NCBI GenBank assembly: GCA_045533905.1 | Contig: JAZSIR010000011.1 | Span: 37,956 to 101,955, forward strand | Origin: Clostridia bacterium | GTDB taxonomy: Bacteria; Bacillota; Clostridia; UMGS1883; UMGS1540 | Direction: 5' to 3' | Length of the DNA: 64,000 nucleotides | The notes under the pieces: generated by a model | What the model was told of the DNA's origin: nothing | Seen by the model: only the letters and a program-made list of their open reading frames with translations | Database searches by the model: none | Shown here: one piece after another, positions 1-52,415 of the stretch | Numbering within the stretch: the stretch's first letter is position 1 | Layout of the letters: each line of letters begins with the position of its first letter | Translations under genes and position numbers: made by a program

Positions 1-894
1 CTGCATCATTTCAATATCGTAATTCGTGCGCTGGGCAATTCTTTGTGCCTCTAAAAGCTTTCCTTCGCGCTGAAAATAGGCCACGCGCTCGTCCGCTTCT
101 ATACGGATTTGGCGAATCGCCTCCTGAAGGCGTTCGCCTGTGGTTACATAGTGGGACGCCGGATAGATGCCCACATGGTTTCGCCGCCCGATAATCTCGC
201 CCGTGAGGACGTCAATTTCCGTAATGCGTTCAATTTCGTCCCCAAAAAATTCCACACGGATGGCTCTGTCGCCCGAGCCTGCAGGGAAAACTTCAAGAAC
301 ATCGCCTCTTACGCGGAACTTGCCGCGTGTGAAATTTACGTCATTTCGGGTATACTGAATATCCACAAGCCGGCGGATAACCTCATCCCTATCCTTTTGC
401 ATACCGGGGCGAAGGGACACAATCATACGGGCATAGTCCACCGGGTCACCAAGGCTATAGATGCACGACACGCTCGACACCACAATCACGTCGCGCCTTT
501 CAAGTAGTGCCGCCGTGGCGCTATGGCGAAGCTTATCGATTTCATCGTTTATCTGTGCATCCTTTTCGATATACGTATCCGTCTGCGGAATATAGGCTTC
601 CGGCTGATAATAGTCGTAATACGAAACGAAATACTCTACTGCATTATTCGGAAAAAACTCGCGAAACTCATTGCAAAGCTGAGCCGCCAGCGTTTTATTG
701 TGAGCGAGAACCAGTGTCGGGCGGTTGACATTGGCAATAATATTGGCCATTGTGAAGGTTTTGCCAGAACCTGTAACGCCCAGCAAAATCTGTTCTTTTA
801 GACCCCGGTTCAGTCCATCTGTCAATTTCGCAATTGCCTGCGGCTGGTCGCCCGTGGGCACAAATTTGGATTGCAGCATAAACTTTTCCGACAT
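1..894 (-). CDS. uvrB: Excinuclease ABC subunit B, 5' part (runs off the window edge)
   Basis: Manual translation [21 protein letters not shown]...[12 protein letters not shown] (Walker A)...[20 protein letters not shown]; AGGAG RBS upstream; absent from ORF track because no stop in window. Confidence 0.96.
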
Positions 895-924
895 GTTCTC
901 ACTCCTTTCTTTTCAGATGCTTTT

Positions 925-3900
925 TTACTCGCAGATTTCTGCATGAAGCTCCTGCAGGGACTTCATCACACCGCACCCCGGCTTATGCATCGATTTGATG
1001 CCGCTTGCGGCAGCCTTTGCGGCGGCAATGGTGGTAATGTAGGGTACCTTCTTTTTGATGGCGGCTTTTCGCAAATAGCTGTCATCCGTAGCGCTTTCAT
1101 CGCCCGAAGGGGTATTGATGATAAGGTCCACCTTGCCGTTTATAATCATATCATGAATATCCGGTCTTCCTTCTCCTAATTTATACACAAACTCTGAGAG
1201 AACGCCGGCATCCGTCAGAACCTTTTGTGTGTTCTTGGTAGCCAGAATTCGGAAACCTGCATTCTGTAAATCACGTGCTACTTCCAGTACTTCTTCTTTA
1301 TCCTTGCTGTTGACAGAAATCAGAACGTTGCCCGAAAGCGGCAGCTCGGTCTGTGTGGCTTCCTGTGCCTTTATAAAGGCTTCGCCGTAAAAGTGCGATA
1401 ATCCCAGCACTTCCCCGGTGGAACGCATTTCAGGGCCGAGCAGCGGGTCCACCTCCGGGAACATATTGAAGGGGAAAACGGCTTCTTTTACGCCGTAATA
1501 CGGAATTTTCCGTTCGCGAAGGTCGGGCACGGGCGATTTCCTGCCAGTAAGCTCTGCCGTTACAATATCAATCGCCAGAGGGACCATACGGATATTGCAG
1601 ACCTTCGACACAAGCGGCACGGTGCGGGAAGCTCTGGGATTGGCTTCAAGCACGAACACCTTGCCGTCTTCAATGGCATACTGCATATTCATAAGGCCTT
1701 TTACGCCCATTTCTTCTGCAATCTTTCGGGTATATTCCTTAATCGTCGCCACATTTTCTTCTGAAATATGGCGGGAAGGAATAATACAGGCAGAGTCGCC
1801 GGAGTGCACGCCCGCAAGCTCGATATGCTCCATAACGGCGGGAACAAACGCGTGCTTACCGTCGCTTATGGCATCGGCTTCACATTCCAGTGCATGGTTT
1901 AGGAAACGGTCGATAAGGATGGGACGGTCCGGCGTAACACCTACCGCGGCCGCCATATACTTTTTAAGATTTTCGGAGTCGTACACAACTTCCATTCCCC
2001 GCCCGCCGAGCACGTAGGAAGGACGCACCATTACGGGATAGCCAATCTTTTCGGCAATCGCAAGCGCTTCCTCCACGGTAACTGCCATACCGGATTCAGG
2101 CATCGGAATCCCGAGCTTTTCCATCATCGCACGGAATAAGTCTCTGTCCTCCGCCAGATCAATAACAGACGGCGGTGTGCCTAAAATTTTAACACCGTTC
2201 TTTTCGAGATCGGCTGCCAGGTTCAAAGGCGTCTGCCCGCCAAACTGCGCAATGACGCCGACGGGTTTTTCCTTATGATAAATACTGAGAACATCCTCAA
2301 GCGTAAGCGGCTCAAAGTAAAGCTTGTCGGAAGTGTCGTAGTCCGTAGATACGGTTTCGGGATTGCAGTTGACAATAATGGTAGCAAAGCCCAGTTTCTT
2401 GAGCGCCAAAGACGCGTGCACACAGCAATAGTCAAATTCAATGCCCTGCCCGATTCTGTTGGGGCCACCGCCCAAAATCATAACCTTCGGTTTTTCTTCG
2501 GCAATGGGATTTTTGTCCGTGCCGTTATAAGTGGAATAATAGTAGGCCTTATCCTCTGTCCCGCTGACGTGCACGGGCTCCCATGTTTCGGTGATGCCGA
2601 GCGCCATCCGGCGCGCGCGGATGCTGTCTTCCGGGATTTCCAGAATCTGGCTTACATACTTATCGGAGAACCCGTTTTGCTTCGCGCTACGCAGTGCTTC
2701 GTCAGAGGGCAAGCTTCCCTTCCATTCCATAAGCGCCTGTTCCTCCTGCACCAATTCCTGCATTTCCCGGATAAACCAATGCTTCACATGTGTAATGGCA
2801 TGAATTTCTTCAATAGTGGCGCCTTTTCGCAGTGCTTCATACATCATAAAATGTCGTTCGCTTGAAGGCGTATGCAAGCGGCGAAGAAGTTCTTCTTTGG
2901 AAAGCGTATTAAAATCTTTTGCATACCCAAGGCCGTAGCGTCCCGTTTCCAGACTGCGGATAGCCTTCTGGAACGCTTCTTTATAGGTTTTGCCGATACT
3001 CATAACCTCGCCGACCGCGCGCATCTGTGTGCCGAGCTTATCTTCTACACCCTTGAATTTTTCAAACGCCCAGCGTGCGAATTTGATGACGACATACTCG
3101 CCGTCCGGCACATATTTATCCAGCGTGCCGTACTTTCCGCAGGGGATATCCCGGAGCGTAAGCCCTGTTGCAAGCATTGCAGAAACCAAAGCAATCGGAA
3201 AGCCGGTGGCTTTTGATGCCAGCGCCGACGAGCGGGAAGTGCGGGGATTAATTTCAATTACGATATCTCGGTCCGTCTTCGGATCATGAGCCCACTGCAC
3301 GTTTGTACCGCCGATCACCTGCACGGATTCGACGATTTTGTACGATTTTTCCTGCAGCCGTTTTTGCACATATTCAGGAATTGTAAGCATCGGCGCAGAG
3401 CAGAATGAGTCGCCCGTATGTACACCGAGCGGGTCAATATTCTCAATAAAGCAAACAGTAATCATATTGCCGTCTTTATCGCGAACAACCTCAAGCTCGA
3501 GTTCCTCCCAGCCGAGGATGGATTCCTCCACAAGCACCTGCCCCACAAGGCTTGCCTGCAGCCCGCGTGCGCAAACGGTGCGCAGTTCATCCTCGTTGTA
3601 CACGAGGCCGCCGCCGGAGCCGCCCATTGTGTACGCCGGGCGTAATACTACGGGGTAGCCAAGTTCTTCTGCAATGCCGAGCGCCTCTTCCACAGAATAG
3701 GCAACCTCACTTCTTGCCATTTCAATGCCGAGGCTATCCATAGTTTGCTTGAAGGCAACGCGGTCCTCCCCGCGCTCAATCGCATCCACCAAAACGCCGA
3801 TAACTTCCACATTATATTTTTCCAAAACCCCTGCCTTTGCAAGCTCCGAGCAAAGATTCAAGCCCGACTGCCCGCCAAGGTTCGGAAGGAGTACATCAGG

Positions 3901-41762: not shown

Positions 41763-41776
41763 GTAGGTAAATAAAG

Positions 41777-41858
41777 CTTTTACATGACTGACGGGTTTGC
41801 GGAGTACCGCAAGGGAGTGTAAAAGAATGCGCAAATTCTCACGGCCGACCGTCTGGGC
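41777..41858 (+). ncRNA. ZMP/ZTP riboswitch (pfl motif)
   Basis: P1 CTTTTACA...TGTAAAAG around TGACTGACG...TTGCGG-AGTA-CCGCAA-GGGAG, linker, then GCCGACCGTCTGGGC; lies 5' of pflB. Confidence 0.92.
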
Positions 41859-41894
41859 AAATCAGTTTTATGGAAAAGCTGGTTTGCCTTTTTT
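41856..41894 (+). terminator. Riboswitch expression-platform terminator
   Basis: GGCAAATCAGTTT...AAGCTGGTTTGCC-TTTTTT overlapping the aptamer 3' end. Confidence 0.85.
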
Positions 41895-51837: not shown

Positions 51838-52212
51838 TAAAAAAGAAATGACCCTCGATTACTTTGCATCTCGTAATCGAGGGTCATTTCTGTTCACTCT
51901 TGATATCTAACATCTTTGGTTAACCTCTCTTTCGTAGTTTGCCTTTTGCTTTTTCCATCTTCTTCGCGTTTTTTCTCTCTTTTTCTTCCCTATGCCGGGA
52001 GCAGCCTGTCACTCCGATGTCTTTTCGCAAAAGGTGGGGTCCTGACGCATGCCATACATTTCTTTATTGTCTTTGGAAACGCTCTTTATTTAAAAATCCG
52101 CCGTTTACTCTATCCTTCTTCTTTTCCTACGTTTCCTTTTTTCCCGAGGTGTACTTCATATGCTGCGCCGCTCTTCTTACTTCATTGGTCTGTACCTTCC
52201 TTTCCTTTGTTG
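51838..52212 (-). ncRNA. Candidate purine-rich non-coding RNA carrying a Met-Lys-stop minigene
   Basis: Promoter at 52218-52246, RBS AAAGGAAAGGAAGGT, ATGAAGTAA at 52185-52177, no ATG-initiated ORF over ~16 codons, terminator at 51839-51891. Confidence 0.6.
51839..51891 (-). terminator. Strong intrinsic terminator
   Basis: 19-bp perfect stem AGAAATGACCCTCGATTAC / GTAATCGAGGGTCATTTCT, 10-nt loop, U-tract on the minus strand. Confidence 0.88.
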
Positions 52213-52217
52213 ATTTT

Positions 52218-52246
52218 AGTATAGCACAGAAAAACGCGCTTTGCAA
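52218..52246 (-). promoter_or_regulatory. sigmaA promoter of the candidate ncRNA
   Basis: TTGCAA-17-TATACT with extended -10 TGn. Confidence 0.75.
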
Positions 52247-52320
52247 TTGGCAAATTGACAAAATAATTTCTGTATTTTTTGTATAAAACGCAGATTTTAT
52301 TGTATTGGCGCATTTTTCTC

Positions 52321-52349
52321 TTTACAAACCGCATTTTTTATGATATTCT
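52321..52349 (+). promoter_or_regulatory. Divergent sigmaA-like promoter with no downstream gene
   Basis: TTTACA-17-TATTCT with TGn. Confidence 0.5.
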
Positions 52350-52381
52350 AAAAGAGTGGTCGGCAGAAAAAGCCGGTTTAG

Positions 52382-52413
52382 AAAGGGGACTTCCTTTTGG
52401 AAGTCCCCTTTTT
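52382..52413. terminator. Intrinsic terminator, longer U-tract on the plus strand
   Basis: AAAGGGGACTTCC-TTTT-GGAAGTCCCCTTTTT. Confidence 0.8.
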
Positions 52414-52415
52414 GT

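Follow-up and report, generated by a model that had tools for sequence, protein, structure and literature searches.

A conserved two-promoter unit of gut Clostridia, with a start-stop minigene and a nine-codon frame, that may make a dual-function regulatory RNA

Among described systems, the element reported here apparently works most like a dual-function small RNA (sRNA), and its layout as a whole was matched to no known system found; RNAIII, VR-RNA, and Spot42/SpfP are presumably further sRNAs close to its type, and STAB-SD we take to be a further 5' ribosome stabilizer resembling the arrangement of its first Shine-Dalgarno sequence (SD1). The dual-function sRNAs of Firmicutes SR1/SR1P and SR7/SR7P (PMC10730256) share with it a free-standing small transcript and a translated small open reading frame (ORF), both predicted in our case, as well as an own promoter and terminator and constraint at the RNA level, while SR1P and SR7P differ in having 39 codons against 9. 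To this type the element adds a 5' start-stop minigene and a predicted tiny RNA from a helically phased divergent promoter; a search for base-pairing targets of the element found none, and Rfam searches revealed no sequence likeness. The 5' ribosome stabilizers of Bacillus subtilis, such as hbs (PMC5737220), likewise combine a very strong SD close to the 5' end with a structured leader ahead of another strong SD, and RNase J is present in the host, but hbs works without a start codon, whereas the element keeps an AUG, two to three codons, a stop, and a 9-codon cargo. CreT/CreA (PMC8501985) and toxic minigenes (PMC2490762) resemble it in that a small RNA carries a strong SD, an AUG, and a mini-ORF and that another small RNA adjoins it, whereas the element has no consecutive rare codons in its commonest frames, no cas family among the scanned neighbors, and no complementarity of its two RNAs. 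CreTA is further marked by linkage to a CRISPR-cas locus and by handles resembling CRISPR repeats on its antitoxin. In type I toxin-antitoxin systems, a hydrophobic membrane toxin of ∼30 to 60 residues (PMC10730256) is paired with an antitoxin complementary to the toxin mRNA, unlike the short, hydrophilic frames (2 to 3 and 9 to 10 residues) and the not specially complementary tiny RNA of the element. CsrB/RsmZ are likewise purine-rich small RNAs of similar length, but GGA is not enriched in the element, and CsrA was not found in the element-bearing genomes of the order. Leader-peptide attenuators need a conserved codirectional downstream operon and an alternative antiterminator, neither of which was found. 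Finally, tmRNA, 6S RNA, RNase P, and SRP RNA have only their length range in common with the element; as the preliminary description of this DNA had noted, their hallmarks are lacking, Rfam gave no match to them here, and the host's own copies sit elsewhere.

The unit occurs once in its genome (G000, 95.5% complete) and lies within the window, by which we mean the whole stretch of 64,000 nucleotides that was analyzed. A glycoside hydrolase family 3 gene flanks it upstream, and downstream lies the gene of a FeoB-associated, Cys-rich small membrane protein (51765-51601, minus strand) with its own promoter and no feoB adjoining. The promoter, SD, 8-nt spacer, Met-Lys-stop frame, and 19-bp terminator stand on the minus strand exactly where the preliminary description placed them. 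However, the unit extends upstream beyond its coordinates, to a divergent promoter, and that promoter and the conserved 3' ORF, both central parts, had been overlooked. Its features are as follows.

52246-52218, minus strand: main promoter of the extended -10 sigma-A type, TTGCAA-17-TGn-TATACT, read from the sequence
52211, minus strand: predicted +1 of the main promoter, an A
51839..52211, minus strand: predicted main transcript of ∼373 nt, deduced from promoter and terminator
52207-52194, minus strand: SD1, a bulged near full-length complement of the 16S rRNA 3' end
52185-52177, minus strand: 5' minigene ATG AAG TAA (Met-Lys-stop); in the family, Met-X-X-stop or Met-X-stop
51934..52176, minus strand: variable body
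52106-52098, minus strand: degenerate subfamily motif within the body
52037-52027 with 51949-51941, minus strand: long-range body helix
52001-51985, minus strand: inner body hairpin
51933-51924, minus strand: second SD (SD2), GAAAG(A/C)GAGG, complementary to the 16S rRNA 3' end with one bulged base
51913-51884, minus strand: 9-codon ORF MLDIKSEQK; in the family, M[L/I/V]D[I/T]K[S/N/I]xx[K/E]-stop
51891-51839, minus strand: intrinsic terminator with a perfect 19-bp stem, the final codons of the ORF and its stop falling within the 5' arm
52251..52263: proximal of two conserved boxes in the inter-promoter region, some two helical turns away from its partner
52277..52296: distal of the two inter-promoter boxes, a candidate regulator site
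52321..52349, plus strand: divergent sigma-A promoter TTTACA-17-TATTCT, 74 nt from the main -35
52356..52414, plus strand: predicted tiny divergent RNA of ∼59 nt, with the 5' motif GUGGUC here, followed by hairpins and a terminator

The unit is 68% purine, SD1 lies ∼5 nt from the predicted start and 8 nt ahead of the ATG, and the terminator of the tiny RNA is common to the convergent glycoside hydrolase gene. The reported repeat of ATGAAGTA 26 nt downstream is present; since the SD of the second ATG there (MKYTSGKKET) is weak (-4.9 kcal/mol) and the ATG reads ACG in the congener L002, this start is, judging from the sequences, incidental.

By blastn (E ≤ 0.01), 31 of 61 related genomes matched the unit, the strong matches being confined to its two ends, which places it beyond chance. 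A model of the 3' part detected it in 45 of the 87 genomes of the order and 4 of 18 genera, and a broader model in 47 of 87, two of them weakly. At the class level, the 3'-part model matched 13 of 151 genomes, and 5 of 151 when near-complete genomes were taken; among 151 genomes sampled from the phylum, strong matches came only from G000 and one genome of the same class, with 10 weak matches outside the class (E of 3.8e-4 or worse). A pattern scan of GTDB returned 122 loci (∼1300 stretches being an estimate from 6 of the 64 parts), titled Oscillospiraceae, Acutalibacteraceae, Monoglobaceae, Lachnospiraceae, and unplaced Clostridia, together with one Bacteroidaceae bin and one Collinsella bin that may be misbinned, and a metagenome scan added 120 further loci. 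Because SD2, some positions of the ORF, and CC before the AUG were prescribed in the search patterns, the invariance of these is partly built in, and the copies are kin rather than independent draws. A 5' unit could be placed in 111 of the 154 distinct elements, while 6 had no upstream DNA and 37 gave none, 24 of the latter with a flank of only 300 nt; the metagenome set comprised 106 elements, including L222, a likely chance match left out of later counts. The suggested Rfam scan returned no match for the window unit at gathering score (by E-value, only terminator-type noise) and none in 20 family loci; 20 other loci gave only Gut-1 RNA and two tRNAs, all outside the element. One such locus, L098, carries a tRNA and Gut-1 RNA after the element (176-590, minus strand). 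As for mobility, which was considered and rejected, 1 of 12 viral matches was a true member, the only phage match was at chance level, and the sole match in the plasmid collection was an 861-kb non-mobilizable replicon.

No paper with the peptides or the motif was found, topic searches gave no such family at the level of abstracts, and six of the eight supplementary files of PMC8040213 held no match; a bare listing in catalogues of microbiome small proteins may exist. On the sequences, this is a real, large, and apparently undescribed family, a widespread unannotated combination of RNA and small ORFs in abundant, mostly uncultured gut Clostridia. A full, unannotated copy in the cultured Vescimonas fastidiosa (NZ_AP023416.1, ∼65460-65175, minus strand) makes it directly testable.

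In our preferred reading, to which we give slightly less than an even chance, the locus would be a conserved free-standing two-promoter unit making a dual-function regulatory RNA. Ribosomes cycling on the start-stop minigene, and thus parked at the 5' end, would protect the RNA against 5'-to-3' degradation by RNase J. The likely effector would be the 3' module (SD2, nine codons, and terminator hairpin), which would give rise to a nonapeptide and at the same time be recognized at the RNA level by a partner, either protein or RNA; ribosome occupancy would gate this module. An RNase J gene is present in G000, and in B. subtilis a strong SD occupied by a ribosome stops RNase J1 (PMC5737220). Because shielding needs only an SD according to the same source, it leaves the fixed length of two to three codons and the arrays of up to four minigenes unexplained.

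Both promoters are recognizable across the family. A pyrimidine-purine step at positions 6 and 7 after the -10 is found in 111/111 main promoters and 79/88 divergent ones, compared with 33/85 controls. The predicted start is an A in 91/111 main promoters and a G in 65/88 divergent promoters; as A is also the commoner start in the controls (22 A, 11 G), the distinctive feature is the G of the divergent promoter alone. This divergent sigma-A promoter accompanies 89 of 97 elements and 46 of 48 metagenome copies, whereas just 17 of 85 control promoters have one, at spacings that cluster at 63 to 65, 73 to 75, and 85 to 86 nt, about one helical turn apart. Behind it, a GUUGGG/AUGGG-type motif, defined after the data had been seen, follows 76/91 divergent promoters but only 2/284 promoter-like sites in G000, one of which is the window locus itself, and a terminator stands within 100 nt in 66/91 cases; the predicted tiny RNA is mostly 20 to 45 nt long in relatives. 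A matrix of the inter-promoter boxes built without the window locus scores that locus at 42.8 and the next best site in G000 at 17.8. The boxes may loosely resemble the consensus sites of DnaA, Spo0A, and VirR. As to a regulator, CodY was not found in G000, the sole LytTR protein of this genome sits, by its reading frames, among relaxase-like and integrase-like genes, and no homologue of the WYL pair of locus L192 was seen in G000 or the other family loci examined. A link to sporulation was considered and rejected, since Spo0A occurs in G000 and SpoIVA in 78 of the 87 genomes, with and without the element, and thus does not discriminate.

A G at +1 is reported to make a promoter respond downward and an A upward (PMC3113569), so that the pair of starts may, speculatively, act as a GTP/ATP (stringent-response) switch. 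An extension of this idea, which we regard as unlikely, is a protein-free stress switch, in which two helically phased promoters with opposite start nucleotides would toggle between a tiny GUUGGG RNA and a minigene/nonapeptide RNA capturing ribosomes or one translation factor. If true, this would establish a novel type of RNA system controlling translation, whose ORF is among the shortest conserved in bacteria.

No part of the unit is better conserved than the 9-codon ORF led by SD2, at variance with the earlier view that only Met-Lys-stop is encoded and that the remaining tiny ORFs lack a convincing ribosome-binding site: SD2 reaches -13.2 kcal/mol (family median, -13.6), compared with -13.9 for SD1. 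An in-frame ATG or GTG, not demanded by the search pattern, is present in 154/154 elements; the free gap is 9 or 6 nt, both in frame, in 154/154, although 10 lengths were allowed; the stops interchange (TGA 92, TAA 50, TAG 11); and TGG at the stop position occurs in 1/154 and, in the metagenome set, 0/106, against ∼7 expected in each from column frequencies. Taken together, these in-frame starts, frame-keeping length changes, interchangeable stops, and near absence of TGG argue, at the level of sequence, that the ORF is under selection for translation. In addition, its codons are locked: among 174 non-redundant copies, GAT stands in 172 and GAC in 2, and AAG in 159 and AAA in 15, compared with genome-wide GAT:GAC and AAG:AAA usage in G000 of 57:43 and 48:52, and where the metagenome pattern allowed any YTN codon for Leu, 104/106 end in A. 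The same first residues in seryl-tRNA synthetase (SerRS) genes use TTA/CTT and GAT/GAC freely and AAA in 5/5, and because synonymous sites are locked in the element, unlike in these SerRS starts, the RNA sequence itself appears to matter besides the frame. Thus, a 9-codon frame, below the reporting size of gene callers, would be under constraint on both the peptide frame and the nucleotides. A SerRS gene of G000 (contig C17, near 42041, minus strand) shares the first five residues of the nonapeptide. Mimicry of SerRS was rejected, as SerRS reads MLDIK in 4/4 genomes whose peptide reads MLDTK, with no covariation.

An alternative that we consider improbable, but still a serious contender, is that the transcript is a plain mRNA of a bioactive nonapeptide, in which the peptide alone acts, as an intracellular ligand or an exported signal, and minigene and body form only a regulatory leader. 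The kept start, stop, and frame speak for it, as do copies found without the pattern whose changes are conservative (MIDIKSEQK, MVEPKSEEN, MTDFKTEQR) and tandem diverged copies that may recall families of signal peptides. However, synonymous sites stay locked while Ile and Thr alternate freely, residues 6 to 8 vary widely, the peptide is hydrophilic and without a signal sequence, and no receptor, transporter, or modifying gene recurs beside the element among 111 neighboring frames scanned.

At the 5' end, the minigene has three codons in 96 of 111 elements, two in 14, and five in 1, so that 110/111 fall at 2 to 3 codons, whereas only 22% of other ATGs in the body are followed by a stop within three codons; 62/63 minigenes of the metagenome set agree. 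A looser search of 13 longer misses recovered a 2- to 3-codon frame in six, a 6-codon frame in one, and 10-codon frames in two, and found no minigene in four (L101, L114, L126, L142). The longest located 5' frames of the sets have 5, 12, and 10 codons, and none continues into a long protein. The residues are free (MYR, MNR, MEK, MYK, and MRK being commonest), with M-X-X-stop in 96/111 and Met-Lys-stop in just 2/111; length and stop are kept, and Lys is not. Of the proposed check, whether Met-Lys-stop is kept while the body varies, the short length and the stop are borne out across the 111 elements and the metagenome set but the Lys is not, and together with the lack of a long frame this supports, by comparison, the earlier idea of a probably ribosome-loaded regulatory RNA rather than a pseudogene. 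Such frames, with their length kept across families, provide a natural experiment on the role of start-stop minigenes in bacteria.

These features would also suit a ribosome decoy, in which the RNA, under stress, would sequester 30S subunits, initiation factors, or initiator tRNA on two to five very strong SD-AUG-stop sites and damp translation, a reading we think quite unlikely. With the 16S rRNA 3' end read from a relative of the class, the family median of SD1 (-13.9 kcal/mol) equals the window value, and SD1 and SD2 rank among the strongest of G000, where ∼6% of long ORFs have an SD reaching -13; an open SD2 is predicted (mean unpaired probability, 0.71), the minigene residues are free at a fixed length, and minigenes, which start 22 to 34 nt behind the -10, are repeated two to four times in L002, L003, L015, L110, L146, and L163. 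However, 105/111 elements carry a single minigene in the strict search, one RNA would presumably hold few ribosomes and short frames free them fast, and the locked 3' codons and the tiny RNA would be left unexplained.

Very unlikely, in our judgment, is an RNA toxin-antitoxin pair, in which the minigene RNA would be the toxin, either CreT-like or acting through peptidyl-tRNA drop-off, and the antitoxin would be the tiny divergent RNA. A strong SD, an AUG, and a very short frame are indeed found in CreT (PMC8501985), the last minigene codon is AGG or AAG in 66/111, the predicted small RNA lies divergently alongside, and the spread over 4/18 genera of the order is patchy. On the other hand, no two consecutive rare codons were found in the commonest frames, AAG being common in G000 (48% of Lys codons); complementarity of the tiny RNA to the main RNA of its own locus does not exceed that to others (longest stretch, 7.08 versus 7.05 nt; duplex, -10.4 versus -11.1 kcal/mol); no cas gene family appears among the 111 scanned neighbors; and only one true member occurs among the 12 viral matches.

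The terminator hairpin is well supported by covariation, with 99.2% of cells paired and 6 of 19 pairs changed on both sides. The lower stem is unusually conserved in sequence across the family, and a GUAAAGA/GUGAAAG-type loop motif, found in 54/172, or the stem may be a protein site; G000 holds no complement to the 20-nt 3' motif that is longer than 12 nt, and none convincingly placed. The ORF stop within the 5' arm of this terminator, and an AYYAAG stretch that could pair with that arm, might recall an attenuator or antiterminator, with the 3' ORF as a leader peptide governing read-through into a downstream gene. This we hold to be highly improbable, considering that the alternative pairing lacks covariation and appears in 24/172 folds, that downstream genes are unrelated and convergent in 35/63 cases, and that the next gene in the window has its own promoter. 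The neighbors are varied housekeeping or metabolic genes in either orientation, the commonest being ThiI (6 among 111 frames).

The body ranges from 16 nt (L192) to over 400 nt. It had been called weakly structured, which is partly true, but its helices covary in relatives: in the window subfamily (30 of 42 copies), both partners have changed in 16 of the 22 named pairs, and 88.9% of cells are paired, compared with 38 to 60% in slid controls, the tested structure having been taken in part from the consensus and thus being biased in its favor. Moreover, a hairpin with a CUUA-like loop precedes SD2 in 35/111 bodies versus 2 in shuffles. Pairing of the subfamily body motif with 16S rRNA was rejected, for although 8 to 9 nt could pair, a G-to-A change covaries with the motif's own partner strand, which favors a part in an internal hairpin. 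That the unit is a CsrB-type protein sponge, as had been offered earlier, or a decayed protein gene is almost certainly wrong: the purine-rich body and the lysine/arginine-rich open stretches of the window notwithstanding, GGA is at the level predicted by base composition, as the preliminary description had itself counted (11 versus 10.7 expected in the unit; 418 versus 446 over 111 bodies), CsrA is absent from G000 and occurs in 2/87 genomes of the order, neither with the element, 7/7 frames lack a Pfam match at E ≤ 1, the minigene and the ORF share no frame (37, 33, and 41 across the three), and a stop-free frame spans 90% of the leader in only 5/111.

Several minor observations were made as well. 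In L077, L083, L090/L091, L128, L060, L238, and contig C43 of G005, the whole unit is present in diverged copies that lie in tandem or close together, the peptide being altered in some. The minimal copy, L192, retains both frames around its short body and lies directly behind a WYL/WCX gene pair, near a tRNA and an integrase (609-3060). An RUGUUR string recurs across the family, perhaps by chance, at three places: the 5' end of the tiny RNA, the loop of the body hairpin, and the beginning of the 3' ORF. Elsewhere in the window, a ZMP/ZTP riboswitch (41774-41865, plus strand) scores above the gathering threshold upstream of a pyruvate formate-lyase-like gene, a known arrangement, and a promoter followed by a 20-pair terminator-like hairpin precedes an operon that is probably glycerol-3-phosphate dehydrogenase-like and holds a probable GlpP-like frame (51590-51498 and 48503-47901, both minus strand). 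The hairpin is likely a site of GlpP antitermination.
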